A stretch of 64,000 nt of DNA from a virus: the IMG/VR virus record IMGVR_UViG_3300026522_000001, positions 54,806 to 118,805 of that record. One strand, 5' to 3'. The translations under genes and the position numbers were made by a program. Shown here one piece after another: positions 913 through 63,878 of this stretch. How positions within the stretch are numbered: position 1 is the first letter of the stretch; every line of letters starts with the position of its first letter. Under the pieces are notes generated by a model that did no database searches, had not been told where the DNA came from, and was given only the letters and a program-made list of their open reading frames with translations.

Positions 913-1231
913 TGGTTGAGATAGATGGGCTTGAACCATCGACCTTTGGTTTATCTTGCTACTACATATTTCTATGTCCACAAAAAATATTGTGTTGTAG
1001 TCTGGGCTATATCTTCATCATTTCAGATGGGCAACGTATAGTCTCTACGAATCCTGTGCAATCAGTTTTCTCGGTATTGTCTTTAGCATTACCTAGTAAG
1101 AGTTTCACCGATATAGTTGCCTGCACTTTATACATTAACTCATTACATTAAATCTATTGCAAGTAATGATTCTGTATAAAGGCTCATATTATGTTTAAGA
1201 CCACTGCTCTAACCTACTGAGCTATATCTCA
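913..1231 (-). tRNA. tRNA-Ile (anticodon UAU) split by a 242-nt group I intron between positions 34 and 35
   Basis: 5' exon 1231-1197: tgagata ta gctc agtaggtta gagc a gtggt ctt. 3' exon 954-913: ataa accaa aggtc gatgg ttcaagc ccatc tatctca a cca. Acceptor, D and T stems pair perfectly only when the two halves are joined. Confidence 0.8.
955..1196 (-). mobile_element. group I intron (IC3-like, no ORF) in the tRNA anticodon loop
   Basis: Follows U34 and ends in G. It starts aaacataatatGAGCCttta (compare AAAUAAUUGAGCCUUA in the cyanobacterial tRNA-Leu intron) and contains cgTAGAGACTATACGttgccc, the P7/J8-7 core as in the Azoarcus/Anabaena tRNA introns. Confidence 0.8.
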
Positions 1232-1647: not shown

Positions 1648-3204
1648 TCAACAGTATTTGAAAATTTCTTCGACAACGTCATAGCGGGACTTATTCAGCT
1701 GTCTGCAAAAGGCTTTATATGGGTCAAGTTCATTACAACAAACCATATCTACAAGCTCTTTACTAAATCCACTCAAAAGAATTACACCATTTCTTGAGCT
1801 TTGAATTGGGACTGTACCATCATTATAACAAGAGACATTCCAAAAAATGAGTTTAGGAAGTTCATACCCACAATCCTTATACTTCTTCTCAATATTCTCA
1901 AATAATGTGTCATTTTCTTGTATATTTTGATTGCGTAATGGGAATCCAAATGCATCTGTATCACACATAGCAGTATTAAACTGCATATCAGAAATGATAA
2001 GAACATTCTTTGGCATATCTGCCTGTGTCGCATTACACTTCTTTGCTGTTTTTAGGATGAGGTCAAATACAGATTCAACATTAGTTGTACTACATTCTGT
2101 ATTTTTCATTAGCTTTTCTATATTGTCCCTTAATGTATTGCAGTTTACTGTAATCATCTTTGGGTTATTAGAAAATGCCATGATTTTATCTTTGAATACA
2201 CCTGTATTATTTTTTGCACAATACAGAGCAATTGAATCCCCAATTTCCATCGCTGAAACATTTTTTGATACATATGATAACATAGAGCCACTTCCATCTC
2301 TAACAACAAGCGTATCAGCAAATGTTTTTGGTTTCTTTTGAGATTCCCAAAGACTCTCTAGGGTATTGTCAACAGGTTTCATTCCAATGCCAAAAAAATT
2401 AGCATCTTTCTCATATGCATGAACTATGTCATACAAAAACATAGAATTAGCATTTATCTTATTTTCGCCACGAGCTACATCAATAAGATATTCATTTCTT
2501 CTAGCAAAATCGTGCTTAAGAAAAGAATCCTTATACTTGATATTTGCTAAAGATGGTACATGAGAGTAATCTACTTTATCCCATTTATTTGAACTTAACT
2601 TTACCTCTAAAACATCTAGCCCTTTTCTTAGTTTAGAAAGTGTTTTTCTATACTGTGAAGGAGACATTCTAAAATATTTTCTAAGTTCATTACCAACTGC
2701 TACTGTTTTCTTTGAAGATGTATTGATACTCGGCATCCATTTTGCTAAAAGACTGTATGGCTTTCCATTGGAATAATTATATAAGTCATCATAAAGCTGT
2801 TCTTGCAAAATCCCTGCAATATATATTTTTAAGTCATCATATTTTGTATTTGCAAAAAGATAAATATAGTCGTCCCATCTGCCAAATTCAGGCAAGTCAA
2901 CCGTGTAAATAAATCTATAGAAAATAGACATATCGATTTCTGTAAGATGAAGTAGCAACTTTCTAAAAGTATCTCTTTCACCCATTCCTTCTCTGACATC
3001 TCTCAAAAAGAGAAGGAATCTTAATGTCATAGCTTTATCTTGATAATATGCTTCATCAAAAAGAGAATAATCTATTGGATTTTCCCTAAATGATGAAACT
3101 TTATAGAAAAAATCTAAAAGTTTACTGCCTGTTGTAGCATAAGCTACTGCACCATTTTCTGTTGTTGTTTTTACATTGTTTTCAAGATTTTCAATAAAAT
3201 TCAT
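1648..3204 (-). CDS. DUF2828-like protein with C-terminal vWA/MIDAS domain (Ro60-like architecture)
   Basis: N-terminus TENGAVAYATTGSKLLDFFYK..LRFLLFLRDVREGMGERDTFRKL matches the DUF2828 signature as I recall it. VVRDGSGSM is a DxSxS MIDAS motif. Confidence 0.6.
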   Translation of the reverse strand: MNFIENLENNVKTTTENGAVAYATTGSKLLDFFYKVSSFRENPIDYSLFDEAYYQDKAMTLRFLLFLRDVREGMGERDTFRKLLLHLTEIDMSIFYRFIYTVDLPEFGRWDDYIYLFANTKYDDLKIYIAGILQEQLYDDLYNYSNGKPYSLLAKWMPSINTSSKKTVAVGNELRKYFRMSPSQYRKTLSKLRKGLDVLEVKLSSNKWDKVDYSHVPSLANIKYKDSFLKHDFARRNEYLIDVARGENKINANSMFLYDIVHAYEKDANFFGIGMKPVDNTLESLWESQKKPKTFADTLVVRDGSGSMLSYVSKNVSAMEIGDSIALYCAKNNTGVFKDKIMAFSNNPKMITVNCNTLRDNIEKLMKNTECSTTNVESVFDLILKTAKKCNATQADMPKNVLIISDMQFNTAMCDTDAFGFPLRNQNIQENDTLFENIEKKYKDCGYELPKLIFWNVSCYNDGTVPIQSSRNGVILLSGFSKELVDMVCCNELDPYKAFCRQLNKSRYDVVEEIFKYC

Positions 3205-3468: not shown

Positions 3469-3549
3469 TGCCCCTGACAGGATTCGAACCTGCACGTCTT
3501 TCGACAACGGATTTTGAATCCGCACTGTCTTCCATTCCAGCACAAGGGC
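3469..3549 (-). tRNA. tRNA-Leu (anticodon CAA), class II
   Basis: Acceptor gcccttg/caggggc, anticodon arm gcgga-ttcaaaa-tccgt, long variable arm tgtcgaaagacgt, T arm gcagg-ttcgaat-cctgt. CCA is not encoded. Confidence 0.85.
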
Positions 3550-3640
3550 AATAATTGGTTTTTTCGTTTTTTCCTTAACGACCTAGCTTTTCAGATGCGT
3601 TTTAGTGCTGGCCAGTCACTTCAAGCATAGTCCTATCCGC

Positions 3641-3760
3641 TTGACACTCCCCATGCCTAAAGGCAGGGGATTCTTGGTTCAACGACCAGTGCACCGCTTC
3701 CAAGGAATTGGTGTCTTACATGATTTCCCCAAGCGTGAATTCCCGTGTGTCCCACGGTAT
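3641..3760 (-). ncRNA. orphan TnpB omega-RNA-like scaffold, copy A
   Basis: 120 nt, about 85% identical to 59985-60104 with compensatory changes. It shares the blocks tgtaagac / gtgca.t / gttga.accaa.a / ggagt.tgtcaa with the 3' UTR of tnpB-2. It begins at the predicted TSS of a consensus promoter and ends in hairpin + TCAA. Confidence 0.6.
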
Positions 3761-3766
3761 GTTTAT

Positions 3767-3795
3767 ATTATAACACACCCTAAAACACATGTCAA
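3767..3795 (-). promoter_or_regulatory. consensus promoter for ncRNA copy A and tRNA-Leu
   Basis: Minus strand reads TTGACA tgtgttttagggtgtgt TATAAT. The predicted TSS falls on ...ATACCGTGGG, the first conserved bases of the repeat. Confidence 0.65.
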
Positions 3796-4120
3796 CACCT
3801 TTTCTGAAAAATTTTGACGAAAATTGAAAAATATATTCTGACCTCGTAGAAGCCGTTCTGAGAGTATTTTTCCCTCTATGAGTATAAATATACCTAAAAA
3901 TGCTTGGGAGCCCCTTAGTGGGCATCCTTCGAAACGACACAGGGTTTTATATTTATATTCTTTTCTCCAACCTGCACAAAAATAAAAATATTGGCCAAAA
4001 AATGAATTTTATATATATAGTGAAATTTTTCACAAGCTATACACTATTTTTTTAGGAGAGGGAGACAGCTAAAGGTAGTTCCCCTCATGGTATACATTTT
4101 ACACATTTGTCCATTTCGTC

Positions 4121-4305
4121 TTATATTATATATTATTATATTATATATACGAACGTAGTGAGTATATTTAATATATAATATATAATATAATATATATAAA
4201 AAATAATATAATAAATATATATATATAAATAATAAAATATTATATATGCTATATATATTATATTATATATACTCACTACGTTCGTATATATAATATAATA
4301 TATAT
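4121..4305. repeat. large inverted repeat flanking a pure A/T spacer
   Basis: Perfect 25-bp arms atatatacgaacgtagtgagtatat (4143-4167) and atatactcactacgttcgtatatat (4267-4291), extended by imperfect TA-rich pairing. The ~100-bp spacer contains only A/T. Confidence 0.8.
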
Positions 4306-4635
4306 AGGGCAAAATAAGCACCTGTCTTTTAGAGAAAGACAAATTATAAAGACTACTTTTTAGCTAAAAATTAGACTAAAGTCCTATTTACTATTTAGAC
4401 AAAATACTTTATAATATATAAAATAATAAAAATAAATAAAAAATAATAATATTTTATCTAAACAGAGCATATAATATTTAGATAAAAATAAATATAAAAT
4501 AATCTTAAATAATAAATTTAATATTAATTTTTATAAATAAAATATAATAATAAATTCTAAATAATTATTATATGTTTAGATTAACATAAATATAAGAATT
4601 TAATAAAAGTTTAATAAAATAAATTAAAATTTCTA

Positions 4636-4664
4636 TTGACAGCTATATATACGTATGATATAAT
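4636..4664 (+). promoter_or_regulatory. consensus promoter of the plus-strand gene block
   Basis: TTGACA gctatatatacgtatga TATAAT (17-nt spacer), about 65 nt before the 4731 ATG. Confidence 0.65.
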
Positions 4665-4730
4665 ATATGTATAGAGAAAAAGGAAATAAGGATTTTAGAG
4701 ATAATAATAAAAAGAAGTGAAAGGAAAAAT

Positions 4731-5255
4731 ATGATTCAAAAACACATAAATATAAAAAATTTACAAGGAACAGTTTCTTTGAATAAAGATATTCTTGTAG
4801 ATTTAGCAGAATTAGTAAGAATTTCACCTATTTCATCAAGACTATTATTCTTTATTATGGGTTATGCAGATGATAATAATGAAATTATTACAAATGTAAA
4901 GACTTTATCTAAATATTTAGGAAAAAATAGAGGATTAATAGAATATGCAATTAAAAATCTAGTTAAAAATGGATATATTACTATGTCATGTGTAGATATA
5001 GATAAATCTATTGATATTATTGGTAAAGAGCATGATATGGAACTCTATTTAGCTTCAAATAAACGTATTTGGAAAGTTATAGGAAATAAATATATTGGAA
5101 CTTTTAAGATTAAGGGAAAATATATTAAACTTAAAGTTAATGAGAATATTATTAAGTGTTCAAATAATAGAACAGGAAATATTATTCTTAATATAAAAGA
5201 TAATTTATATTATGATACAAGAATTGAAGATAATGATTTAAAGTGGGAGTTATAA
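4731..5255 (+). CDS. hypothetical protein, possible winged-helix DNA-binding protein
   Basis: ORF track. First gene after the promoter. The segment SKYLGKNRGLIEYAIKNLVKNGYI looks wHTH-like. Confidence 0.55.
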   Translation: MIQKHINIKNLQGTVSLNKDILVDLAELVRISPISSRLLFFIMGYADDNNEIITNVKTLSKYLGKNRGLIEYAIKNLVKNGYITMSCVDIDKSIDIIGKEHDMELYLASNKRIWKVIGNKYIGTFKIKGKYIKLKVNENIIKCSNNRTGNIILNIKDNLYYDTRIEDNDLKWEL

Positions 5256-5258
5256 TAT

Positions 5259-5423
5259 ATGCAGTCTACAAGAATTATTTTTAATATAAATACTAGACTA
5301 AAAGAAATGTTTGAAGATATTTGTAAAGAAAAAGGACTTACAAAAACTAAAGTTATTACAATGCTAATTAAAAAATATGTTAATGATAATAATAAAATTG
5401 AAAGAGAGGAAATTAAGGTTTGA
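5259..5423 (+). CDS. ribbon-helix-helix (CopG/Arc-like) small protein
   Basis: 54-aa ORF below the track cutoff: MQSTRIIFNINTRLKEMFEDICKEKGLTKTKVITMLIKKYV. It has a beta-alpha-alpha pattern and overlaps the next start by 4 nt. Confidence 0.5.
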   Translation: MQSTRIIFNINTRLKEMFEDICKEKGLTKTKVITMLIKKYVNDNNKIEREEIKV

Positions 5424-41190: not shown

Positions 41191-42947
41191 CTGGTATTTC
41201 CACTACGATATACTTTCTTACACTTAAAACAATTTACCATAATATAATTTTCAATATTATTAGCATTATTATCAATAGCTTCTTGATAATATTGTGGAAA
41301 TTTATTTTTTAGTTTTTGTACTTGGCATTGTTCACGTTTATACCATTCATCAAGTGTTCTAAACCAATAATAGTTTGGTTCTGCTTGCTTAATATACTTA
41401 AATCCAAGCCTTTCATAAATACTGCCATCAAAATAATCATTATCGCTATATGATAAAATGTTTTTCGGCGAAAAATCTTGAATAAAATGACTCAATAATT
41501 TATTAGCTCCACCAATAATTGTATATTCACTCTTTACACAATATCTGTGTAATTCATAATATCCATTTAGTTGCTTTTTTAATCGACGTTTGCCGAAAGT
41601 CATAACAGAAAGAAGTTCATCATTATAATAAAGTCCATAACAAATACTACTTAAATTTGTATGACCTTGTAAATGATACTTATCACAAAATTCATTTGCA
41701 ATAGATTTATCAATAGATTTAATACTACAATTTCTAGCATATATTTTTTGTTTTGTGGTAAATAAATCTTTTAGATATGCTTTTACTTTATCATTCCAAT
41801 CAATATCAAAAATAGAAATTAAATGAACCCCTTGCTTTTTAGCTTGTAAAAACTTATCACGATGATAATATTTGTCTTTATTATCATATACTCCATTTAA
41901 TGACGCATGAAAAGCTGAACCATTATATTCAATTCCGATATTATATTGTGGAATATACATATCAATTTCTTGCATTACTTTTGCTTGTAGAATCCTATCT
42001 TTATAACAATTTACCCCAAGTGATTGAATATATTTTCTAACACAATCTTCTTCATAACTACCATCATCACAACCACAAGAATGTGAAACATTATTTTTTA
42101 ATTTCCATGCGTTTTTTATAGTCATGTTACCACAATCACATTTACATAACCATTTTGAATCACCAACATATTTAATTACTGTAAGTTTTCCAGAACGCAA
42201 TCCTGTTAAATCTTCTGGATGTGATAGATGGTTAATGCAACCACACGATTTTGTATTCCCTGTCAATAAATTACTATTAGGAACTATTGTGTAATTCCCA
42301 CAATCACATTTACATTTCCAATACGATATTCCATCTTCCATTCTATCTAAACAAACTACTGTTAATCTGCCATATCTTTCGCCAGTCATATCATGGTATT
42401 TACCACAACCACAACTAGTTCTTCTACCAGCAGTAAGTTCATATCCTGCAATATCTTTTATATTACCACAATCACATCTACAAGTAAAGTATGCAATTCC
42501 ATCTTTTGTATATGCTAATTTCTCAACAACTAATTTACCAAAACGTTTACCAGTTAAATCTTTAATTTTATGTACGTTACTACCACAATCATGCCAATAT
42601 TCTTTATTTGCTAGTTGGTCTGTATACCTTACACATGTATTTCCACAGGAACATTTACAATTCCAATAATTTTTACCATTTTTCTTATATGCGAATGATG
42701 TAACAGTAAGCTCACCAAATTCTTTACCAACTAAATCTACTTTACCGCCACATTTACCACATGAATGGAAGTGTCCTCCTTGTCTTAAATAAGAACCATT
42801 TACAACTTTTGTGTTACCACAGTCACATTTACATAACCAATACCTCCCTCTCTTATCACTATGGTCGTATTTAATTACTAAAAGTTTGTCAAATCTTTTC
42901 CCTGCTAAATCATACATTAAAATCACCCATATACCAATGCCGTTCAA
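41172..42947 (-). CDS. multi-zinc-ribbon repeat protein with Vsr/DUF559-like PD-(D/E)XK nuclease core (free-standing homing-endonuclease candidate)
   Basis: About six repeats of GK[RE]FG.L.V......G...W.C.CDCGN. The nuclease core is EIDMYIPQYNIGIEYNGSAFH. The C-terminal ARNCSIKSI..FCDKYHLQG module is seen in phage Hef-like proteins as I recall them. Confidence 0.55.
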   Translation of the reverse strand: MNGIGIWVILMYDLAGKRFDKLLVIKYDHSDKRGRYWLCKCDCGNTKVVNGSYLRQGGHFHSCGKCGGKVDLVGKEFGELTVTSFAYKKNGKNYWNCKCSCGNTCVRYTDQLANKEYWHDCGSNVHKIKDLTGKRFGKLVVEKLAYTKDGIAYFTCRCDCGNIKDIAGYELTAGRRTSCGCGKYHDMTGERYGRLTVVCLDRMEDGISYWKCKCDCGNYTIVPNSNLLTGNTKSCGCINHLSHPEDLTGLRSGKLTVIKYVGDSKWLCKCDCGNMTIKNAWKLKNNVSHSCGCDDGSYEEDCVRKYIQSLGVNCYKDRILQAKVMQEIDMYIPQYNIGIEYNGSAFHASLNGVYDNKDKYYHRDKFLQAKKQGVHLISIFDIDWNDKVKAYLKDLFTTKQKIYARNCSIKSIDKSIANEFCDKYHLQGHTNLSSICYGLYYNDELLSVMTFGKRRLKKQLNGYYELHRYCVKSEYTIIGGANKLLSHFIQDFSPKNILSYSDNDYFDGSIYERLGFKYIKQAEPNYYWFRTLDEWYKREQCQVQKLKNKFPQYYQEAIDNNANNIENYIMVNCFKCKKVYRSGNTRWELTS

Positions 42948-43569
42948 TAGTTACATCACAGGTAAGATTAAACGGGAGTGCGCTTGCCGCTTTTATTGCA
43001 AGATACTCTAATCTTTTAGCTACCTCATCTGCATATTGTACATCACAGATGACACCTTGTTCATCATGGATGGACATTACTAGCTTTGCATCATACTTTC
43101 TCATTACCTCATCATGGTAAATAGAATTAAGAGCAATTTTACAGATGTCAGCACTACTACCTTGAATTATGCTATTTGCTACTTCTCGTAGTGCTTTTGC
43201 TTTCTTACCTGTATTGTCGATAATTGTAATATTATGCTTTTGTGCATAATTTATGATTTGTTGTTTTTCTGTTCTTTTAGCATGAGACAACCTATTGATA
43301 AAATCTTCTTTGTAGAACACCTGACTTTCTTCGTTATATTCTTTACCAAAAATAAATTCATAGTCATCTAACAGTAATTCAGGAAGTCTCCTTCTTCTTC
43401 CGTAGAAGCCATCAATGTAACCATTCTTCTTAGCAAAGTTTTGTACATCTTGCAACCATTGATGCATATCAGGAAACGCTTTCATAACACTATCATAGAT
43501 TTCTTGTGCCTTTTCTGTTGTTACATGTAAATCTTCACCAATAGCTTTAACACCTTTTGAATATAAAAT
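42910..43569 (-). CDS. DNA polymerase I family (PolA), exon 2
   Basis: Begins ILYSKGVKAIGE, completing motif B. Motif C is MSIHDEQG. Confidence 0.8.
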   Translation of the reverse strand: MLYSKGVKAIGEDLHVTTEKAQEIYDSVMKAFPDMHQWLQDVQNFAKKNGYIDGFYGRRRRLPELLLDDYEFIFGKEYNEESQVFYKEDFINRLSHAKRTEKQQIINYAQKHNITIIDNTGKKAKALREVANSIIQGSSADICKIALNSIYHDEVMRKYDAKLVMSIHDEQGVICDVQYADEVAKRLEYLAIKAASALPFNLTCDVTIERHWYMGDFNV

Positions 43570-43931
43570 CAACTTCAATTATTATTGAAGCTAGACTATA
43601 TCTTCACCCACGTTATTACGTTTGGTCTTATAGTGTGCAAATAACTATAAGAATGATACTATATATCATGTGTGAGGCACTTCGGATATATGAATTTCAC
43701 AAATATCCTACTCCCTGCCGGGATAGTCGTTTGACTTTTCTACATATTTTATATGTAAACTTAGCACTGGATTGTAATTATATTTAGAGGGTTACTAAAC
43801 TAATCATGTCCCCAGTCAGCATCTAAATTAGTCACCATTTCCTGTGATTACTATACGTTTTAGACACACCCTAGATTTCTAGGTTCACCTCATTACAATA
43901 TACTATTTCTAGTATATGGAGCGTTTTATTC
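43570..43931 (-). mobile_element. group I intron (IA2-like, no ORF) in polA motif B
   Basis: 5' splice site after ggT, 3' end ..gaagttG. It contains acgactatcccggcagggagtagg and gaagatatagtctagc, which match the T4 td-type cores AACGACTATCCC..GGGGAGTAGG and GAGATATAGTCTG. Confidence 0.75.
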
Positions 43932-45548
43932 ACCCAATACGATTGCTTTTGCTTTACTTCTTCTTTCTTTTCCTTCTTTATTTGTTGTTCCGTCATCATT
44001 AAACTCACAACAATCTTTGTATGGAACATTAAATGCAAGACTAGCTACATGAGAATAAATGTCTATGCCATCCCTAAACGCTTGAATCATCTTCTCATCA
44101 CCGGAAACTGCCGCACATACCGCAACTTCTTGTCTTGAGTAGTCACACAGAATCAAAACCTTATTATCACCTGCATAGAACATATTTCTTATATCGCCCA
44201 TGTGCGAGGGCAGTTGCTGGATGTTAATCTCACCACTACTAGATAATCTTCCAGTCCTTGTTCTAACACTATTAAAGTCTGGTCGAACTACATGATTCTT
44301 GTCTGATTCAGCCAAGTCAATAATTTTATTGATAAATGTTCCTAGTGCTTTATCATATTTCTTTACATCTACTAGTGCTCCTGCTATTTTCTTTAGCTGT
44401 GTATTTTCATATTTAGGACTAGTTAAGATTTTATCTAGTACATGCTTTCCTGTTCCATTAGGCTCTTTTTCAAAAATCACACCTGTGTTAATAATCTCAT
44501 AGAACAAGATTTTTATTTGAACAGGGCTATTATAGTTTATTGGATATTCTAGCTGTGTTCCTGCATGTTGCTTTATATAGAATTTTATTTTATCCTCTAG
44601 GGGAGATACAGCTTCATTGAATTTCTCTAATGCTTCTTTTTGTAGCTTCTCATATTTTTCTTTTAGCTTATATGCCATTTCAATATCAATTTGTATTCCA
44701 CGCCATTTCATATCAGCAAGAACTTCAATCAGAGGAAGTTCTTCTGTATGAAATACTTTTGAAACACCCTCTAAATGACATACCTTACATTCTTCTGTTC
44801 CTACTGTTAGATATGGTTTTTGGAATAGATATAGTTGTTCTGTCATTAAACAGTCATGTGCTGAATAATAATATCCAACTTTAGGATTAATTCTATTAAA
44901 AGGAATCCCATCAAATAGCTCAACAAACTTATGAACCCCTGCTTTACCTTCCATAACATATTTATCATATAGAACCTTCAAGCTATGTGGCTCATTTTCA
45001 TTTAACATTGCCGCCGCTACTAATGTATCCCAATATACACTAGGGAAATATCCCAAAACAGCTTTCAACACAATCAAGTCGTAGTAAGCATTATGAAATA
45101 CATATCTACAATGCTTTTTATTCATGATGTCAAAGCCTTGTTTTATGCTTTCTTTACTTACTTGATTGCTTAATGGTTGTTCTGTTATGCTACTGATATG
45201 ACCAACAGGTGCATAGGCTTCTGTTTGCCCAATACTCTTGATACATACACCTGCTAGTCCTTCTGTCTGGTCTTTGAATGATAACCCGCTTGTTTCTGTA
45301 TCAAGAGAAACAATATCGTTTTCATGGATATTATTACAATATTCATTCCATTTTTCATTACTGTCTAAAAGAATTGGATGATAATCACCAAGGTTTGTTT
45401 TTACATTCAACTCAATTTCTTTTAGCTTATTGATTAGTGTTCCTTTCTTTACAGAAATCTTTGACTTGTTACATTCTTCTTCTCTAATCTTTGCAATTAT
45501 ACGTGAAACATTAGGTGATTGTCTTTCTTGTAGTTTGAATAGCTCCAA
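43932..45548 (-). CDS. DNA polymerase I family (PolA), exon 1 with 3'-5' exonuclease domain
   Basis: Exo I VSLDTETSGL, Exo II FHNAYYDL, Exo III YYSAHDCL, motif A ILCDYSRQEV, then RRSKAKAIVLG| (first half of motif B). The likely TTG start at 45548 follows AAGGAGG. The longer track ORF overlaps the upstream gene. Confidence 0.8.
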
Positions 45549-45567
45549 CAGAAAGTCCTCCTTTTTA

Positions 45568-45783
45568 TCAATTATAAAGATGGCCTTTATATTCTGTGAA
45601 CACAGATGTACCTGTAATATAATAATTATCTTTATTTTTTCTTTCTTCTGTGTTATCTTTTGCAGGCAAATTATCAATAATCTTTCCAATAAGGTCTTTT
45701 GCTTCTTGATATAATCCTGCCGCGCCAACTACTTCAAACTCATCATCATACTCAAATGTAACAACATACACAAAATCTACCAT
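45568..45783 (-). CDS. hypothetical small protein
   Basis: ORF track. RBS GGGAGG upstream. Confidence 0.55.
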   Translation of the reverse strand: MVDFVYVVTFEYDDEFEVVGAAGLYQEAKDLIGKIIDNLPAKDNTEERKNKDNYYITGTSVFTEYKGHLYN

Positions 45784-45963: not shown

Positions 45964-46037
45964 CAGAGGTAGCTAGACTCGAACCAACGGAAGCAGAAGT
46001 CAAAGTCCCACGCCTTAATCAACTTGACTATACCCCC
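45964..46037 (-). tRNA. degenerate tRNA-Gln (anticodon UUG) or tRNA pseudogene
   Basis: T arm gttgg-ttcgagt-ctagc and anticodon loop ctttgac. The acceptor, anticodon and T stems contain many G.U pairs. Confidence 0.4.
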
Positions 46038-46083: not shown

Positions 46084-47010
46084 TCAAAACGGAAGTTTTA
46101 TTCCATGCGCCGTGAAAAAATCGTGCATAACATTTTTTGTTTTTTCTGTTACTAATACACAAAGAATACTAAAGTCTATCTTTGGATTCTTGAATTTCTT
46201 TACGAAGTGCCATGCTTCTTCTGAGATAAGCTCATGATAGACACTATTAAGACATCTGCCAATACACTTATTATCCCAATTATCGGCTCCAATATCTTCT
46301 AGAATCTTAGCAAGCTCTTTTTCGATAAAAGCATCAGTACAGAATTTTTCTACGATTGATTCCTCGATTTCGTTTGAAGAAACTTCTCGATGAATCTTTT
46401 TTGACGCCATGAACTCTTTGCGTACAATCTTCGCCCATGTAGTACGACCGTACTTATTCTTCCATCCATCATAGCGTTTAATGACAAGTCCTTCACCGGG
46501 AGTTTTGTCGTCAGACTGAAGAAACGTTGTTTTATCAAGATAAGGCAAGATATCTTCTTTTGATGGATGATTTAATACGGCAATCAATGGAACATATTCA
46601 ATATTATACTTCTTAAGAAGTGGCTCGTACTCCTCATAAGATAGATATCGTGGATTCTCTGGGTTGCTGTAGTCTACTACATCGAATACATACAGCTTTC
46701 TCCAAGCAGAATCTTTATAAGTTCTGATGCTCTGCTTTACAAGAAATTCTCCATAAAGGTAGAGATTTGGGAACTCTTTGAAGAACTGCTCGAATTTAGG
46801 CTGAGACAATATGTAAGCCATACAACCAGCATTATCTTTACCTTCTGATAGCTCTCTTTTACGGCTATTTACGATGACCTTGCCATTATCGTAATGAACG
46901 CCTGCATTTGTTCCATCGAGCTTAGTATAAATATATACTTTTCCGTCAAGAATACCGTCAACTTCATCGCTACCAAGACGTTCTACATGTTGATAAAATT
47001 GGGTTTTCAA
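46084..47010 (-). CDS. ATP-dependent RNA ligase (Rnl2/RNA_ligase family)
   Basis: Nucleotidyl-transferase motif I YTKLDGTNAGV, plus YLYGEFL and GEGLVIK motifs. Confidence 0.6.
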   Translation of the reverse strand: MKTQFYQHVERLGSDEVDGILDGKVYIYTKLDGTNAGVHYDNGKVIVNSRKRELSEGKDNAGCMAYILSQPKFEQFFKEFPNLYLYGEFLVKQSIRTYKDSAWRKLYVFDVVDYSNPENPRYLSYEEYEPLLKKYNIEYVPLIAVLNHPSKEDILPYLDKTTFLQSDDKTPGEGLVIKRYDGWKNKYGRTTWAKIVRKEFMASKKIHREVSSNEIEESIVEKFCTDAFIEKELAKILEDIGADNWDNKCIGRCLNSVYHELISEEAWHFVKKFKNPKIDFSILCVLVTEKTKNVMHDFFTAHGIKLPF

Positions 47011-53764: not shown

Positions 53765-54080
53765 GGTTGTCTAAATGCACATACCTTTCTGCTATTTCTT
53801 CTGTACGTCCTTGATTGAAAAAGTTACTACTAATGTACCCACAGACCCTGCGCCTTATAATCATTTGACTATGGTCTTGATTACCGCAATTAGGACATTC
53901 CCAATCAAGTTTACCATCTTTATCAATAATTTTTATTTCGCCATCAAAACCACACTTACAACAATGGTCGCTCTTTGTATTTAACTCTGCATATAATATG
54001 GTATTATATATGTGTTTTATTATTGATAATACTGCGTCAATATTATTATTCACATCTGCACACTCAACATAGCTTATTGC
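53751..54080 (-). CDS. nrdD: anaerobic ribonucleotide reductase NrdD, exon 4
   Basis: Begins AISYVE. Zn ribbon CCKCG..CPNCG and glycyl-radical tail RRVCGY. Confidence 0.85.
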   Translation of the reverse strand, partial: AISYVECADVNNNIDAVLSIIKHIYNTILYAELNTKSDHCCKCGFDGEIKIIDKDGKLDWECPNCGNQDHSQMIIRRRVCGYISSNFFNQGRTEEIAERYVHLDNHEIC

Positions 54081-54832
54081 CAAAGTCCTTTACTTTTTAA
54101 TTTTTCTTCAACAATAGTTCTTAATTCTTGTTTCTTTGCTTGTGGTAAATCTAAAGTATATTCATATTTCCTAACTTGCTCTTCTTTATTAGCAAATTCT
54201 TTAAATAATAATTTTTCTGCATAATATCTTTTATATACCGCATTTTTTAATTCTTTTTCATAACCTAGATGACACCTTTTTTCTTGTAATCTTATTTCAG
54301 AATCATACCTATCATGGTATTTATCATACCTTACACCAATAAAATTTGATGTATTTCTTTTCATATATGATTTATTTAATACATTTTGCCCTTGTGTACA
54401 AATACGTAAATTACATTTTCTATTATCAAAAGCATTACAATTAATATGGTCTACTACATAACCACTATCAATTTGTTCTCTCGTAATTCCAATAATAATC
54501 CATGATAAATCTTTTTGTGTTCCTTTGCTTGGTAATCCTGTTACTACATGGTCATGACTTATTCTCCATTTATGATATTTTACTTTTTCAATATCATCAA
54601 AGTCAATAATAAACTCACCATTTTTTACATTCTTTTGATTATATAAATTAAACGTAACAGTATTTGTATCATAGTTTATTGTGTAATCATTTAGGTCTGA
54701 ATTTGTTCTTTGAATATTATCTAAGAATTTACCATATTTTAATAATTGATGCATGTGTTTACTGCATAAGCAATAACCATATAAACTAATTTTCTTTTTT
54801 AATTCTCTACCACAAATATCACATTTGTACAT
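54074..54832 (-). CDS. HNH-AP2 homing endonuclease (intron-encoded)
   Basis: VVDHINCNAFDNRKCNLRICTQGQNVLN (HNH) and FIGVRYDKYHDRYDSEIRLQEKRCHLGY (AP2 domain). The stop overlaps the 3' splice site by 7 nt. Confidence 0.8.
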   Translation of the reverse strand: MYKCDICGRELKKKISLYGYCLCSKHMHQLLKYGKFLDNIQRTNSDLNDYTINYDTNTVTFNLYNQKNVKNGEFIIDFDDIEKVKYHKWRISHDHVVTGLPSKGTQKDLSWIIIGITREQIDSGYVVDHINCNAFDNRKCNLRICTQGQNVLNKSYMKRNTSNFIGVRYDKYHDRYDSEIRLQEKRCHLGYEKELKNAVYKRYYAEKLLFKEFANKEEQVRKYEYTLDLPQAKKQELRTIVEEKLKSKGLWQ

Positions 54833-55067
54833 ATTTTAACCTCCGACTATATCTTAGAGTAACGGGAAATCACCGCTTTACTCCATCTGCGCTTCAACAT
54901 AGTGCTTATCTCTATGCTTACATAATAGTCTGTACACCTTCTATATAAAATAGCTTGGCACGGTATTTCCTCATTCGTGTCTACCGTTAGCACATAAATA
55001 ATTATGCACACCCTTTAGCAAGGTTCACAGATTTTAGGGTGGCTTTTCGGCTATATTGATTGTCCAA
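54081..55067 (-). mobile_element. group I intron 3 of nrdD carrying an HNH-AP2 endonuclease gene
   Basis: 5' splice site after ggtggT, omega-G at 54081. The ribozyme core (..ctctaagatatagtcgg..) lies upstream of the ORF. Confidence 0.7.
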
Positions 55068-55755
55068 ACCACCCGGACTTAGGGATTGATATTTAGCTTC
55101 ATTTGTTAATTTTGTAAATGGGTCTACTTTATCACGTACAAAATAATGATAACTATTTGTTATATAATCTCTATCTGTTATTCCTTCTATAACACCAAAT
55201 CTACGTTTTAATGCAAGTGCAAATTTATATGTACCTGTTTCCATTGGTGTTCCATATAGTGAATAATCTATATCTTCCTCTTTCTTCCATTGACTACATT
55301 TATCATTTAGAGCTTGCATTACTTTCATGCCAAACTCTGTTCCTTCTGCACCGTCCATATGAGATTTACCTGTCATATATTTAACACATTCATATAAACC
55401 TGCATATCCTAATGAACATGTAGCATATCCACCTTTAAATAGCTTACCTATTTTCTCACCATGTTTTAGACGTGCTAATGCTCCGTCCATCCACATGATA
55501 GGTGCTTCATCTGCTACTGTATCTTTTATATGGTTTATACGTTCTTTATGTGCTTTGTGACATAACTCTGCACGTTCATCAAAAATCTTCCAAAACTGTT
55601 CAAAATCACCTTCTGATGATAATGCTATATCAACTAAGTTTAATGTGACTACACCTAAATTAAACCTACCATAATATTTCTTACCGTTCACCCAATTATT
55701 TGCGTTTGCAATATTTGTTTGTGTTCTATCTGGTGTTAGGAACGAGCGACAACCC
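55068..55755 (-). CDS. nrdD: NrdD, exon 3
   Basis: Begins (M)GCRSFLTPD and ends ..YQSLSPGG. The frame joins exons 2 and 4 exactly. Confidence 0.85.
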
Positions 55756-56063
55756 CTCTTTGTTCATAGTAGTTCGCAACACTACTACAGTTCTCTTATG
55801 AACTTCTATATATCACTATATAGAACAGACTATATCTATATGTTGATAAAAACATAGCTACTATTTCGTTTTAAGTGGTATTACGTGTCCGCAATCACAA
55901 CCACACCTCATTAGCTTAGGCACTACGATTAAAAATCTAGTCGTTTGGCATTTATCAGTTTATATAAGCTGATATTTAGCACAGGATTGACTTATAATAA
56001 GTTATCCCCTGTTTAAGTAGCTTATTCATTTAGTTCTCACAAACTAAAGGCACTAATTTGTCA
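55756..56063 (-). mobile_element. group I intron 2 of nrdD (IA2-like, no ORF)
   Basis: Contains aaacaggggataac..aatcctgtgctaaat, gccaaacgactag and agatatagtctgttc, matching the td-type P3/P7 elements. It ends ..aacaaagaG. Confidence 0.75.
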
Positions 56064-56563
56064 ATGCACGGATATACGTCACCCTTTAATTTTTTCATTA
56101 TCTTAGCTGATATATAATCTGGAACCATTCTTTTTGCAGTACATTTTGCCGCAAGCTCTGTTAGATAATAATATTTGCTATCTTCATGTATATTGTTTTC
56201 ATCTAAACAATACAGTAGCTTTGGAAATGCTTGTGTTATGTAGTGTCCATCACGATTTTTCATTCCTTGAATACGTTGTTTTAAAAATTCTTCAATTAAC
56301 ATAGCAACTTCTTCTGTATATTCTGTATCTTCATTTAAATACATAAATACACTGACAAAAGGACTCTGTCCATTGACATTACTCATGCTATTTATTTGAT
56401 AATTGAATGTTTGTACTGCATCTTCTATTTCTTTATGCAAATCTTCTTTTGCATATTTTTCACAATCTTCTTTATTAAATCCTCTATTTTTATACTTATC
56501 TAAAAATCTATTATAACTACTTCTTACAAATGGTGCTAAATGTGTTAATGTTATTGTAGTTCC
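56064..56563 (-). CDS. nrdD: NrdD, exon 2
   Basis: Begins GTTITLTHLAPFV and ends ..GDVYPC + AT. The codon ATG is completed by the first G of exon 3. Confidence 0.85.
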
Positions 56564-57728
56564 CAAATGCTATATAAGTCTGTATTCTACATATAGCTTA
56601 GACTATTTCTTATTACTATTTGTGTTTAGTAATCAGTATGTTTCAGATTTTGCTACCAAAACCTTACAATTAGTCGTTACAATTATTCTATAATTTTAAT
56701 ATCATGTTTTTCAGCTTCGTCAAGCCATCTTCTAGCTTGTGTTTCTGATTTATCAATAAATCTTGCAAATGCTGATACCGTATGAAATTCATATGTTCCT
56801 TTATATATGAAATGTTTATACTTTCTATTTTTAACTCCTACTCTTACTTTTTTCCTATGTAAAACCTCATAAGCATGTTTATTATTTTCTGACTGGCTAA
56901 CCCACTCTAAATTATTAGCATTATTATTTGTTTTATCTCCATCAATATGATTTACAGTATTTCTTTCTTCTGAATATCCATCACAAAAAGCATGTGCAAC
57001 AATTCTAGCTAATTGAAGTGTCTTACCTTTGATATATATATAATATCTCCCAGTATATTTATTATAATCATTAGTGAGTAAAATATATTTATCATATGTT
57101 TTTATATAATGTTTTACTCTACCATAATTAGATACATAATAGTCATCATAACCTAAAATTTGTTTCCAAGTTTCATTTTCAAATTCTTCAAAATCATAGT
57201 TATTACTACTATCATTAATCATTTTATTTACTGCTTCTTTGTGCTTTTTGTGAATCCTAGCTACATAATCATTTTTTGCTTTTTCTAAAACCTTATCATA
57301 ATAAAAAATAGTTCTTAATGTTTCTTTTGAACAATGTAACTCTTTAGCTATATCTGCTAATGATATATCATTGTCTAATCTACTTTTTATTAACTGCTTA
57401 TTCTTATTGTAAAACTTTTCTGTTGATGGATTCATATATCTATGTGGTTCAGCTTTTGGTAATTTCCAAATATCATTTATATACATAATCAATGTTTTTC
57501 TGTTTAATTCTAATAAACGTGCTATATACGATTTTGTTCTACCCTCTTTTGAGTATAATTGATAAATTGTATTTTTTAACATTTCATATTTATTTTCCAT
57601 TAGGCATTTCCAACCTTTCATTATAGAATAATCACGAGATTAGCTTTTCCAACCTGCCTCGTTAGCCGTGTATTTAATACGCAACCCTGTTGTGACAGTT
57701 AATACTGTTTTACTACGGCAGAATTTAG
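56564..57728 (-). mobile_element. group I intron 1 of nrdD carrying an HNH endonuclease gene
   Basis: 5' splice site after tacggT, omega-G at 56564. The 3' core is aagaaatagtctaagc. Confidence 0.7.
56683..57621 (-). CDS. HNH homing endonuclease with NUMOD4 and HTH modules (intron-encoded)
   Basis: YYVSNYGRVKH (NUMOD4), NHIDGDKTNNNANNLEWVSQSENNKHA (HNH), and N- and C-terminal HTH-like segments. Confidence 0.8.
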   Translation of the reverse strand: MKGWKCLMENKYEMLKNTIYQLYSKEGRTKSYIARLLELNRKTLIMYINDIWKLPKAEPHRYMNPSTEKFYNKNKQLIKSRLDNDISLADIAKELHCSKETLRTIFYYDKVLEKAKNDYVARIHKKHKEAVNKMINDSSNNYDFEEFENETWKQILGYDDYYVSNYGRVKHYIKTYDKYILLTNDYNKYTGRYYIYIKGKTLQLARIVAHAFCDGYSEERNTVNHIDGDKTNNNANNLEWVSQSENNKHAYEVLHRKKVRVGVKNRKYKHFIYKGTYEFHTVSAFARFIDKSETQARRWLDEAEKHDIKIIE

Positions 57729-58388
57729 ACCGTAGCTGGAAGATGTAACTGCGGTTATGATTTGTGTGACAATCGTAGTAGCAGTTGTCAACATGTGTGG
57801 TTTATCAATATGTACGCCATTTATATTTGTACCATAGTTTAACATATCTTCAAGATTAATTAATTCACAATTTGTTAAATGCTGAATTGCATAATCTAAA
57901 TCGTGTATCTTAATAATAGCTTCTTTATCTGCTTGGACTACATCTGGTGTAAATATATATTTCTTAGATAATGCTTTTGACATTACACCTGCCATATAGT
58001 CTCTTTTTGTAGTTACTAGTTCTGAATTTTTGTTTGAATTTTCTGTTGTCCAATATTCATCATCATTACCTAGCATACTCATGATTTGCTTTTCTGATTC
58101 ATTGTCTATGTTACGTTGATATTCTCTTACTGCTCTATAACCTTCATAACTTTTTGCAGTATTTTTATGACCATGCTTAACAAGCAAATTAAATACATCT
58201 GTTTCTATTTCACTTATATTTATTGGCATATTTTCATTTACATGTTTTATGTAAATTTCTTCTCCTATTTTATGTGCAACAGTTTCAGAAATTTTACCAC
58301 TCATATTCATAGCTTTTTTAATGGCATTATATATCTTATCTCTATTAAATGGAACAATACTACCATCACGTTTTTTTACAGAAAGCAT
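57729..58388 (-). CDS. nrdD: NrdD, exon 1 (ATP-cone + N-terminal core)
   Basis: MLSVKKRDGSIVPFNRDKIYNAIKKA (ATP-cone). It ends ..TQIITAVTSSSYG, joining to GTTITL (conserved SQYGG region). Confidence 0.85.
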
Positions 58389-60616: not shown

Positions 60617-60760
60617 CTGAACCTCCCCATAGCTAAAGCTAGGGGATTCGTAAGAAGTTTAGTTTTTTATAACTCTTATTCTTACTGGTGTATTCAGTTC
60701 ACCTCTACTGTATAGTCCACTTAAGGACACAACATTACTTTTTCTTAATATGTTTAATGC
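60617..60760 (-). ncRNA. predicted omega-RNA / right-end region of tnpB-1 (bounds approximate)
   Basis: The 3' end of tnpB-1 plus 42 nt reads ..cagtaagaa-[stem]-cgaaTCCCC-tagc-ttta-gcta-t-GGGGAggTTCAG, the same architecture as copies A and B. Confidence 0.45.
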
Positions 60761-61900
60761 ACCATTTACATCTGCATTAAGTAGTATACCACTAGAAGTT
60801 TTATACAAGCCGCGCTTTATACGCTTTCCGCTAAAAATATGTTGTTTAGAATCACCATATACAGGAATCTCATCTTTATCCCAAAAACTTGCTTTTGATG
60901 TATAGCTTTCTTCTTGTTCTATCATATCAATGCCATATATTTTACATTGATATTCTAGCTTTTGTTGCAACTTATAAAAAGGCATTTGAACAAATATCTG
61001 ATTGTTTACCTTCCCTAAATTACTTTTCTGCTGAAATCCTTTATTATTACCAATAACAAGATTTCCTATATTATGCTCTAAACAGTAATTTATTATCTTT
61101 TTAGCTGTCTTACCTAGATAATCCCTTACACGATTTTCTCGTTTTCTAAGTAGTCTTGCTTGTCTTTTTGTTAGTGTCTTACTTAACTTCTGTTTGTCTT
61201 TAATGCTTTGCAATCTAGCATTTTCTTTATTATACCATTGGTTATAGCTTTTCAGCTTTTTCCCATCAAGTATAAAAGAGTCACCATCTGATGTTACACA
61301 AGTACAAAGATTGTTTACTCCTAAATCAATGGCTAGTGCTTTTGTTTTATCTAAATTTATTTTTGAAACATCTTTTACTTCATAAGTATAAACAATTTCA
61401 AAAAACCTAGCATTATATTTTGGGATTATTTTTATTTCTTTGACTTTCTTATCAGATAATATCGAAGGCATTTGAATATAAAATTTTTTATGTGTTTTTG
61501 CATATTCCCTTGAATATGGCATTTGAAACTTACCATTACGAATATTAATCTGTTGAATTATTAGCTGATTATATCCCTCTTTTGGTAAGTAATGCGGAAT
61601 ATTGACTTTATGAGCTACCTTCTTACTTTTTAAGCTACCAAAGAATGACTTAAACTCTGCATCAACCTTTCTCATAATCTGTTGTGCCATACTTGCTTGC
61701 AAAAGTTTATAATTATCACTTGTCTTTAGTGTCTTGTAGACCTCATTGTAATTTAGATAACTCTTATCACTGAAAAATTTCTGTCGTATCTCGTATAAAA
61801 CTTGATTTTTAAGATTTTTTGAAATACGACACTGTTCTTTAAGGACATTATATTCTTCCTTTGACAAATGGTTAAGCTGTTGTTTTACTACTAAGTACAT
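60659..61900 (-). CDS. tnpB: TnpB-family RNA-guided nuclease, variant without zinc-finger cysteines (tnpB-1)
   Basis: RuvC-I ALAIDLGVNNL, RuvC-II MIEQEESYTSKASFWD, RuvC-III LLNADVNGALNILRK. N-terminal OrfB helical region. Confidence 0.85.
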   Translation of the reverse strand: MYLVVKQQLNHLSKEEYNVLKEQCRISKNLKNQVLYEIRQKFFSDKSYLNYNEVYKTLKTSDNYKLLQASMAQQIMRKVDAEFKSFFGSLKSKKVAHKVNIPHYLPKEGYNQLIIQQINIRNGKFQMPYSREYAKTHKKFYIQMPSILSDKKVKEIKIIPKYNARFFEIVYTYEVKDVSKINLDKTKALAIDLGVNNLCTCVTSDGDSFILDGKKLKSYNQWYNKENARLQSIKDKQKLSKTLTKRQARLLRKRENRVRDYLGKTAKKIINYCLEHNIGNLVIGNNKGFQQKSNLGKVNNQIFVQMPFYKLQQKLEYQCKIYGIDMIEQEESYTSKASFWDKDEIPVYGDSKQHIFSGKRIKRGLYKTSSGILLNADVNGALNILRKSNVVSLSGLYSRGELNTPVRIRVIKN

Positions 61901-61995: not shown

Positions 61996-62260
61996 CTCTA
62001 ACTTTAACCTTCTTTAGGAGGTCTAGTTCATTACAAGTCGCTACACTCGTAACAGTTCTCTTATGAACTTCCTATCATTTCTGATAGGCACAGACTATAT
62101 CTTATCCATATCATATCTCTATGACTTAGGCGAAACCACTTCCATAGCCAATAGCTTGCTATGTACTTCCCTCAAGAGGAATAGTCGTTGAAGTTTCCCC
62201 TATTCGGGGCTTACCTGCTGATTACCAATTTTTGAAATAGGAATTAGGATTTAACCTTGT
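61996..62260 (-). ncRNA. group I intron 3' core-like sequence (IA2 type), bounds approximate
   Basis: agatatagtctgtgcc + covarying hairpin + gaagttcataagagaactgt, identical 20-mer to nrdD intron 2. caacgactattcctcttgagggaagta lies at 62164-62190. Confidence 0.6.
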
Positions 62261-62439
62261 CCCATCTACTAGATTTTTTCTGTTTTCACCGCATATCACG
62301 TTTAGGCTTGTTTCATCCTTACGTTGTAGCTCTAGTAGCTTTATGGTATTCCAGCAATTCAGTTTCTTTGTTGCATGGCTACACAAAACCATGTCTACAC
62401 ACCAATTTATTGATATGCTTACCTACTTATTCCCTTATA

Positions 62440-62762: not shown

Positions 62763-63878
62763 TTATGCTGATAAAATTCTTAAACCTTCGTCTAAGATAT
62801 TCTGTGCAGCATTTCTATCCCTATCACAATGATGTCCACAAGAAGGACAAGTCCACTCACGAATAGATAAATCTTTTATTTTTGGATTTTGATAACCACA
62901 TTTATTACACAACTGACTTGATGGATAAAATCTGTCTATTTTAACAATCTTTGTGTTAAATTGTGGTGCTACATATTCAAGTATTCTCAAGAATTCACCA
63001 AATCCATAATCTCCAACTTTCTTGCCATGTCCTTTCTGCATCCATTTCATATTCAAATCTTCAAAACAAATAATAGAATATTTTTTGCAAAGTTCTCTTG
63101 CCAATTTCCAATGATAAGCATTACGCTGATTGGTTACCTTTCGATGTAACCTTGCTAAAGCAAGTTGTGCTTTATGCCTGTTATTTGAACGTAATCTTTT
63201 TGTAAAGAGATTTCGATTAGCTTTTGCAATAGCTTTTTGCTGTTTCTTGAAAAAACTTGGTGCAATTATGTCATCTTCTTTGTTTGGTGCTACAAGCATT
63301 TTACCCTTGAAGCCAAAATCAAATCCGATGCTTTTACCCAGTCTAGGTTTAATATTAACTTCTGGCGTTTCACAAACAAGATAAACATAGAAGTCTCCAC
63401 AAGAATCTTTCTTGACAGTAAGCATTTTAATCTTACCCTCTACTTCTCTTGACTTGAAAAACTTATATTTGTTCTTAGCAATCTTAATAGTATTATCTTT
63501 AATAGCGTTTTTACCTACTTCATCATAAGAAAATGAACAATACTTTCTATAAGGCTTAAATTTTGGCGGGGATGTTTTCTTTTTTCGTTTTAGATTTCCC
63601 CAAAATAATTTATAGCCATTATCTATTCTACACACGACATCATGAATAGCATGAGATTGTAAATCTTTCCAATAAGCATACTTATCTAGTTTTTTGAGCT
63701 TAGTAATATGCTTTTGCAGTCTAAATTTATTCAAAGATTTATGATAAAGTTTCCAATATCGCTTATGGAGAGCAATGCAATGATTATATATCTTGCAAGC
63801 TACCCAAAGCTGATATTGTAACTTCTTATTCTTCTTGGAATTATATAGCTTAAATTTATATGTTTTCACATTGCTCAC
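62763..63878 (-). CDS. tnpB: TnpB (IS200/IS605 OrfB) RNA-guided nuclease, classical type (tnpB-2)
   Basis: RuvC-I SIGFDFGFK, RuvC-II ICFEDLNMKWM, zinc finger CNKCG..CPSCG, RuvC-III DRDRNAAQNI. Confidence 0.9.
   Translation of the reverse strand: MSNVKTYKFKLYNSKKNKKLQYQLWVACKIYNHCIALHKRYWKLYHKSLNKFRLQKHITKLKKLDKYAYWKDLQSHAIHDVVCRIDNGYKLFWGNLKRKKKTSPPKFKPYRKYCSFSYDEVGKNAIKDNTIKIAKNKYKFFKSREVEGKIKMLTVKKDSCGDFYVYLVCETPEVNIKPRLGKSIGFDFGFKGKMLVAPNKEDDIIAPSFFKKQQKAIAKANRNLFTKRLRSNNRHKAQLALARLHRKVTNQRNAYHWKLARELCKKYSIICFEDLNMKWMQKGHGKKVGDYGFGEFLRILEYVAPQFNTKIVKIDRFYPSSQLCNKCGYQNPKIKDLSIREWTCPSCGHHCDRDRNAAQNILDEGLRILSA

Follow-up and report, generated by a model that had tools for sequence, protein, structure and literature searches.

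A tRNA-Ile(UAU) gene split by a group I intron in the tRNA cluster of an uncultured phage

Can a phage tRNA gene be interrupted within its anticodon by a ribozyme and still supply a tRNA? The question is raised by positions 913–1231 of a 64,000-nt stretch of DNA from an uncultured virus (IMG/VR record IMGVR_UViG_3300026522_000001, positions 54,806 to 118,805), here called the window; coordinates are those of the whole window, and the split tRNA-Ile(UAU) gene, with all the intron features given below, lies on its minus strand. The 5′ exon (1231–1197, 35 nt, UGAGAUAUAGCUCAGUAGGUUAGAGCAGUGGUCUU) comprises acceptor, D arm, 5′ anticodon stem and loop bases C32, U33 and U34, and terminates in ...GGUCUU. 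The 3′ exon (954–913, 42 nt, AUAAACCAAAGGUCGAUGGUUCAAGCCCAUCUAUCUCAACCA) starts AUAAACC, so providing A35, U36, A37 and A38, and continues through the 3′ anticodon stem, variable loop, T arm, acceptor and A73 to an encoded CCA (915–913). Between them lies an insertion of 242 nt (1196–955) that begins AAACAUAAUAUGAGCCUUU, includes CGUAGAGACUAUACGUUGCCC, follows a U and has G as its final base. When joined, the exons make a 77-nt tRNA, with the insertion point between anticodon-loop positions 34 and 35. ARAGORN with intron search, followed by a check of the sequence, gives tRNA-Ile(tat) of 77 nt with a 242-nt intron at '...gtctt-Intron-ataaa', exactly the junction put forward in a preliminary description of the locus, and the joined exon sequence alone is likewise called tRNA-Ile(tat). 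Without intron search the program finds five tRNAs in the window, none of them at 1231–913. That description had placed the halves 242 nt apart, joined as ctt|ataa, around an intervening sequence that follows a U and ends in G; all of the strings it quoted are present, on the minus strand, which it had not stated.

That this insertion is a group I intron splitting the tRNA-Ile(UAU) gene is close to certain; the earlier proposal of such an intron between U34 and A35 is supported by a local Rfam match, a dedicated covariance model, covariation and guide pairing. In an Rfam scan of a local 451-nt segment, Intron_gpI aligned at 984–1159 (32.5 bits, E 1.2e-6) across P3, P4–P6, J6/7, P8 and J8/7. 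A covariance model, R1, was made by aligning the cores of 11 viral tRNA introns from P3 to the terminal G, with the window excluded and the helices supplied as structure. Searched against the 64-kb window, R1 matched 955–1125 with 133.5 bits and E 3.4e-32. The alignment is full length (model positions 1–166 of 166) and stops on the proposed terminal guanosine, G955, and all 27 modelled pairs are canonical in the window intron; R1 gave no match on L022, a related viral contig that lacks the intron. The unconstrained minimum free energy (MFE) fold of the 242 nt has −54.1 kcal/mol (z = −3.55; none of 200 shuffles is equally stable) and recovers P2, P2.1, P3, P4, P5, P6, P8 and a three-way P9 junction. 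Taken together, R1, covariation and the MFE fold reveal the conserved catalytic core P3-P4-P6/P7-P3′-P8 with its P3/P7 pseudoknot. An enzyme-spliced tRNA intron of the archaeal or eukaryal kind, which would be short and placed at 37/38 in a bulge-helix-bulge, was rejected, as the insertion lies at 34/35, is 242 nt long and contains a ribozyme core.

The helices follow one another along the intron in the order of a compact ribozyme. P2 (1181–1174 with 1133–1126, 8 base pairs; from the MFE fold and the 5′ parts of the family) encloses P2.1 (1169–1163 with 1146–1140; MFE). P3 pairs GGCAAC (1121–1116) with GUUGCC (1035–1030) and encloses P4 (1111–1106 with 1076–1071), both being supported by covariation and the MFE fold, as well as P5 (1101–1098 with 1083–1080; MFE), P6 (1070–1069 with 1050–1049) and P6a (1065–1063 with 1056–1054). 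The P7 pseudoknot joins GAGACUAUA (1045–1037) to UAUAGCCC (1011–1004) around the 3′ strand of P3 and P8, the latter formed by CAUC (1029–1026) and GAUG (1019–1016). The P9 three-way junction consists of P9.0 (1000–997 with 962–959), P9a (994–990 with 983–979) and P9b (977–973 with 968–964), which is closed by a GAAA loop, and the intron ends on the terminal guanosine (omega-G) G955. No endonuclease open reading frame (ORF) is present in the 242 nt, where the longest stop-free stretch is 64 codons; in relatives such an ORF is located in the P2 loop, and several start within the 5′ strand of P2. Covariation was scored in 14 sequences including the window, over 35 pairs in P3, P4, P6, P7 (pseudoknot), P8, P9.0 and P9b. 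Standard pairs fill 97.1% of the cells, against 27–45% when the 3′ partners are slid by 1–3 columns, a control made somewhat favourable by the structure having been taken from the window. Two-sided changes, which are independent of that choice, occur in 18 of the 35 pairs, including all six of P3 and three of P4, and the observed covariation values were reached by none of 500 shuffles.

The guide sequence of the intron fits both exon ends, so that P1 and a 3-base-pair P10 are both available in the window. The internal guide GAG (1185–1183) pairs with exon bases C32, U33 and U34 (1199–1197) to form P1, with a U34(1197)·G1185 wobble at the 5′ splice site followed by U33-A1184 and C32-G1183, while the adjacent UAU (1188–1186) pairs as P10 with AUA (954–952), the bases A35, U36 and A37 of the 3′ exon. 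Across the family the guide is GAG, or GCAG in introns of tRNA-Asn, and pairs with the last 3–4 nt of the 5′ exon. P1 with a U·G wobble at the splice site forms in all 18 members scored, and in 17 of the 18 the opening base of the 3′ exon finds its partner in the base immediately 5′ of the guide. This first P10 pair tracks the anticodon: the two Ile introns and one Leu intron have A:U, the Arg(UCU) and UCA introns have C:G, and the Asn introns have U:A.

The same slot can be compared among related phages. A 518-aa protein encoded next to the split gene (1648–3204, minus) has relatives on four viral contigs, L022–L025. On L022, where the protein is 92% identical, the order is Leu(caa), protein, Arg(tct), Ile(tat), Met(cat), Gly(tcc), and the tRNA-Ile(tat) is an uninterrupted 77-nt gene. 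On L023 (protein identity 88%) the corresponding gene is about 1 kb long. Here the group I rule (5′ exon ending in U, intron ending in G), by which ambiguous ARAGORN boundaries were corrected, yields exons that together form tRNA-Ile(tat), and an intron of about 920 nt at the identical site. The L023 junction, GGUCUU|AAA...AAG|AUAAACC, is the same as in the window, the anticodon arms are identical, and within the intron lies an ORF of 252 aa whose product contains an HNH_3 domain (E 3.7e-14). There is thus a presence/absence polymorphism at one slot, with no intron in L022, 242 nt in the window and about 920 nt in L023. This comparison bears on the suspicion that the locus is an artefact, either unrelated tRNA-like fragments around a chance insertion or an assembly chimera. 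Such an origin is conceivable for uncultured sequence of unknown assembly quality, but the same junction in an independent contig, the intron-less version within the L022 cluster and the ribozyme match at E = 3.4e-32 effectively refute it.

The flanking tRNAs are 93–100% identical among the window, L022 and L023, while the identity of the tRNA-Ile to that of the window is 58% for L022 and 79% for L023. We infer that the whole small tRNA-Ile gene has been exchanged more than once, as would be expected from co-conversion of exons of only 35 and 42 nt during homing. A title cited in a review of the field speaks of 'recombination of the entire tRNA locus' for tRNA-Leu introns (PMC3984707). The intron cores of the window and L023 are only 68% identical, and derivation of the window intron from that of L023 by mere loss of the ORF was ruled out on this ground. 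The intron is probably a selfish mobile element that entered by endonuclease-driven homing, which would replace the whole of so small a gene by co-conversion, with the endonuclease gene since lost from the window copy.

The best explanation of these data, which can be held with good though not complete confidence, is that one tRNA-Ile(UAU) gene in the tRNA cluster of an uncultured AT-rich phage carries a compact group I intron of bacterial/plastid type between U34 and A35. The tRNA cluster would be transcribed as a precursor in which the intron folds, and the anticodon stem of the tRNA would keep both splice sites together. The first attack, after U34, would be made by a free guanosine docked at the G-C pair of P7; the freed 3′-OH of U34 would then attack after G955 and release a 77-nt tRNA that reads AUA. 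It is probable that the intron actively self-splices in this way to give a working tRNA, and what holds confidence at this level is a mismatch in P7 and the fact that splicing is deduced from sequence.

Several observations weigh against a functional gene. The joined halves had been described as a perfect cloverleaf; a cloverleaf is indeed formed and is recognized by ARAGORN as tRNA-Ile(tat), but the top pair of the anticodon stem (27-43) is a G·A mismatch, so that 'perfect' does not hold. The same G27·A43 mismatch is present in the L023 tRNA-Ile. The suggested search with Intron_gpI (RF00028) gave the local match cited above, but its 32.5 bits are below the gathering score of 50, and scans of the whole window with Rfam lacked an intron match both at the gathering threshold (tRNAs only) and at E ≤ 0.05. 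This sub-threshold score reflects one generic model and not the ribozyme class. The one oddity of the ribozyme lies in P7. Its 5′ strand GAGACUAUA is unchanged, and the bulged A1044 and a G-C pair, G1043-C1005, are present; the latter is, by alignment, the presumed guanosine-binding pair, and its counterpart in the Azoarcus intron is the guanosine pocket G129-C176 (PMC13168695). The neighbouring pair is A1042·C1006 instead of A-U, and this could weaken or abolish guanosine binding. The 3′ strand reads UAUAGCCC in the window but UAUAGUCC in 21 of 21 relatives from the first scan of viral contigs and in L023, as well as in 123 of the 124 cellular matches listed, the C variant being found in the other one. 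No near-identical copy of the intron by which to judge the fixation of C1006 was found in metagenome or viral collections: metagenome scans with the window-specific P3′–P8 string and with the 3′ junction gave zero matches, and viral contigs scanned for exact copies of the window's exon-intron junction and of its joined exon had none either. C1006 may also be a sequencing error.

From these points one could argue for a decaying group I intron, crippled by the A·C mismatch and the loss of its endonuclease, in what would be a split tRNA pseudogene, the reading of AUA being left to the host. The rarity of C1006 and the absence of identical copies elsewhere in the metagenome and viral scans favour such decay, and the intron-less tRNA-Ile of L022 shows that an alternative exists in the lineage, so that the window copy might be dispensable. 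It is nevertheless an unlikely reading, given the canonical state of all the modelled pairs, the perfect fit of P1 and P10 to the exons, and a good cloverleaf with T loop and CCA. The A·C variant is moreover not confined to the window. A loose P7 pattern gave 119 matches in viral contigs, mostly by chance, and the only real ones after filtering were L071, with a 208-nt intron in tRNA-Leu(UAA), and L099, with an intron of about 190 nt in a tRNA with the anticodon UCA. Both combine GAGACUA with UAUAGCCC and have intact exons. At the aligned position 1042/1006, 11 of the 14 sequences have A-U and three have A·C. The sequences of P3, P8 and P9 in L071, L099 and the window all differ from one another, so the variant is kept on separate backgrounds, which suggests that it is tolerated. 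A protonated A·C pair can adopt wobble geometry.

It is less probable still, and indeed very unlikely, that removal of the intron depends on or is assisted by protein, be it a phage or host factor or an endonuclease cut followed by resealing by the phage's RNA ligase. Some group I introns do need chaperones in vivo, and a member of the RNA ligase family (PF09414, E 3e-22) is encoded in the window (46084–47010, minus). The ribozyme core is complete and supported by covariation, however, the site is 34/35 and not the 37/38 of enzyme-spliced introns, no splicing endonuclease was seen, and phage RNA ligases are generally tied to the repair of nuclease-cut tRNA. The ligase gene stands beside a lone tRNA-Gln(ttg) gene (45964–46037), between the primase region and the polymerase, and its product may serve in tRNA repair against host anticodon nucleases.

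How widely is this intron family distributed? Scanning viral contigs for the P7/J8-7 core gave 21 loci, many of which are tRNA genes split by 209–650 nt according to the ARAGORN intron search, and tRNA genes split by the same family occur in about 15 other viral contigs of the set examined. The ARAGORN labels 'Ser?', 'Lys?' and 'Stop' given to relatives were dropped under the group I rule; most become Arg(UCU), including L013, and L099 becomes UCA. On this basis the viral hosts are tRNA-Arg(UCU) on many contigs, split as CUU|CUAA; tRNA-Leu(UAA) on L004 and L071; tRNA-Asn(GUU), split after U35 with a GCAG guide; the long-arm tRNA with anticodon UCA on L099; and tRNA-Ile(UAU), found in the viral set only in the window and L023. 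The position of the Asn introns after U35, together with their GCAG guide, indicates that the family has been retargeted to a different position of the loop. A megablast search of 20 kb against GenBank phages gave no match, and a search for distant similarity returned only short tRNA or P7-core matches.

Individual contigs add some detail. In L071 (2886–3055; IMGVR_UViG_3300009709_000001, a 385-kb huge-phage contig) the intron lies exactly at U34/A35. The split gene of L099 (2226–2383; IMGVR_UViG_3300026522_000022, a 130-kb contig) is a long-variable-arm tRNA, which ARAGORN labels 'Stop(tta)' under other boundaries; with the anticodon UCA it may decode TGA, as a suppressor or in recoding, and its production would then depend on splicing. 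Four contigs carry two split tRNAs each (L004, at 3470–5353, L007, L010 and L020), for example Arg(UCU) with Leu(UAA) or Arg(UCU) with Asn(GUU).

In cellular genomes, one per prokaryotic species, a slightly broader core pattern found at least 120 loci, and 68 of the 124 matches listed lie inside tRNA genes (Arg, Asp, Leu, Met/Ile(CAU), Thr, Asn, Ser, Tyr, His, Phe). R1 gave 57–118 bits on a sample of the bacterial tRNA introns (Accumulibacter, Bradyrhizobium, Microcoleus, Acidobacteria and others), which places the window intron in a large bacterial family of tRNA-embedded group I introns. Published members of the family occupy cyanobacterial and plastid tRNA-Leu(UAA), cyanobacterial tRNA-fMet, Azoarcus tRNA-Ile(CAU) and alpha-proteobacterial tRNA-Arg(CCU) (PMC4033280; PMC3984707). 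By resemblance to these, the window intron may be provisionally labelled IC3.

Among the nearest known counterparts is the cyanobacterial and plastid tRNA-Leu(UAA) intron, which has the same U34/A35 insertion point and the same P1 (C32-U33-U34 with a GAG guide, then C-C/U and the P2 hairpin); phage L071 has such an intron at this site in its own tRNA-Leu(UAA). The Anabaena intron presumably starts AAAUAAUUGAGCC. The window intron differs from the cyanobacterial and plastid type in its tRNA-Ile(UAU) host, its phage genome, a P10 retuned to AUA, an extra P2 hairpin and the A·C in P7. With the Azoarcus tRNA-Ile intron it shares compactness, both being ribozymes of about 200 nt in the anticodon loop of a tRNA-Ile and without large peripheral domains, as well as the J6/7-P7 sequence GUAGAGACUA; the Azoarcus intron also binds guanosine at a P7 G-C pair, like the pair proposed here. 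Accumulibacter, which is related to Azoarcus, has an intron in a tRNA(CAU) gene to which R1 gives 98.5 bits. In contrast, the Azoarcus intron resides in a bacterium, in the isoacceptor CAU (Ile after lysidine modification) instead of UAU and at another loop position, and its self-splicing is proven. The introns of T4 td, nrdB and nrdD/sunY, of SPO1 and of other phage DNA polymerases resemble the window intron as mobile group I elements of phages, often with HNH or GIY-YIG ORFs, but sit in protein-coding genes.

All phage group I introns then known were in protein-coding genes, despite the many phage tRNA genes, according to a 2014 review (PMC3984707). Devoto et al. (2019) reported 'enigmatic introns' in tRNAs of Lak megaphages, noting that phage tRNA introns were previously unreported, and tried Rfam without giving a class (PMC6784885); a 2026 survey noted that tRNAs of jumbo phages with alternative coding contain intronic sequences (PMC13037316). 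These genes are likewise broken in the anticodon region and found only by intron-aware tRNA finders, but their introns are unclassified, and one is said to encode a tRNA itself (PMC6784885; PMC13037316). A full-text literature search, of incomplete coverage and with most subscription journals outside it, did not turn up any report of group I introns in the tRNA genes of phages. The statement in the preliminary description that no such phage case was familiar is thus broadly borne out, since one source has protein genes only and the other two unclassified introns.

The ribozyme mechanism and the intron family are already well known; the novelty lies in the host gene, tRNA-Ile(UAU), and in the setting in phage tRNA clusters, and the finding applies to many phages. 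The statement that phage group I introns occur only in protein-coding genes needs revision, as their tRNA targets include at least Arg(UCU), Leu(UAA), Asn(GUU), a UCA-anticodon tRNA and Ile(UAU). Because default tRNA finders and whole-genome Rfam scans are both blind to such genes, phage tRNA inventories and analyses of codon supply are undercounted. The family is also a candidate explanation for the published unclassified phage tRNA introns. Furthermore, the intron-less allele, the alleles with and without an endonuclease gene and the rare variant of the guanosine site form a natural series for the study of homing into very short genes and of active-site tolerance. A much bolder view, which is a long shot, is that group I introns in phage tRNAs are a widespread overlooked layer rather than neutral passengers. 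Splicing would then gate tRNA supply, for instance through guanosine nucleotide levels, or the split loop before splicing would hide the anticodon from host nucleases until late, and the family might account for the Lak and huge-phage introns. If this long shot were true, the gate in the A·C variants of P7 could be pH or Mg2+ acting on the protonated A·C wobble.

What use would the phage have for this tRNA? The window has about 30% G+C, and in 31 long ORFs AUA ranks second among the Ile codons, accounting for 23.8% of them and for 18.2 per 1000 of all codons. The earlier claim that AUA is heavily used is therefore fair, although the usage is not extreme. With AUA this frequent, a phage tRNA reading it makes sense, and the supply of that tRNA would depend on removal of the intron. 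The codons AGA, GGA and CAA (23.2, 19.2 and 17.9 per 1000) are frequent as well and are matched by phage tRNA-Arg(UCU), tRNA-Gly(UCC) and tRNA-Gln(UUG). By PHROGs assignment the window encodes a phage module for replication and nucleotide metabolism, with family A DNA polymerase, DnaB-like helicase, primase, UvsX-like recombinase, clamp, NrdD, ThyX and homing endonucleases. The best cultured relatives by recombinase are phages of Clostridium, Bacillus and Streptococcus, at 33–37% identity.

In the cluster itself, all on the minus strand, tRNA-Arg(UCU) (1310–1236) precedes the split gene with a 4-nt spacer, tRNA-Met(CAU) (911–838) starts one base past it, and tRNA-Gly(UCC) follows at 835–762. 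A genomic 3′ CCA is encoded in tRNA-Arg(UCU) (1238–1236) as in the split tRNA-Ile, and the tRNA-Ile genes of L022 and L023 are likewise CCA-ended. The neighbouring 518-aa protein belongs to PHROG 850 ('RNA-binding protein') and contains the Pfam domains DUF2828 and DUF7788 with a weak VWA_2, a make-up that recalls Ro60/TROVE-like RNA-binding proteins. It lies inside the tRNA cluster in the window, L022 and L023, and adjoins tRNA genes in L024 and L025. An Rfam match to YrlA (Y RNA-like) at 1179–1280, across tRNA-Arg and the 5′ exon, was set aside at 19.5 bits and E 0.14, as it most likely reflects tRNA-likeness only.

The genome is rich in introns, and other genes of the window are also interrupted, again on the minus strand. 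The polA gene for family A DNA polymerase is split into an ORF at 43926–45728 (exonuclease plus DNA_pol_A 5–213) and an ORF at 42910–43578 (DNA_pol_A 217–380). The gap of about 350 nt between them (43579–43925) has an Intron_gpI match at 43573–43854 (32.5 bits, local E 1.6e-6) and is, to judge from this match, another group I intron without an ORF, here at one of the classical sites for phages. The nrdD gene (53765–58388) is in at least three pieces, 57699–58388 (ATP-cone plus NRDD 1–105), 56030–56566 (NRDD 112–250) and 55002–55691 (NRDD 271–470), with HNH_3 ORFs between or after them (56683–57621, 54074–54832). R1 has weak matches nearby at 54898–55001 (22.7 bits) and 55935–56014 (9.7 bits), and a local Rfam scan of the nrdD gaps gave no match; several diverged introns probably account for the interruptions, T4 nrdD being a parallel. 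Lastly, two nearby TnpB-like ORFs (60659–61900 and 62763–63878, minus), each with OrfB_IS605 and a Cas12f1-like TNB domain, have between them a marginal R1 match (62101–62263, 14.8 bits, E 0.04), representing either an IStron-like chimera of intron and IS605 or chance.

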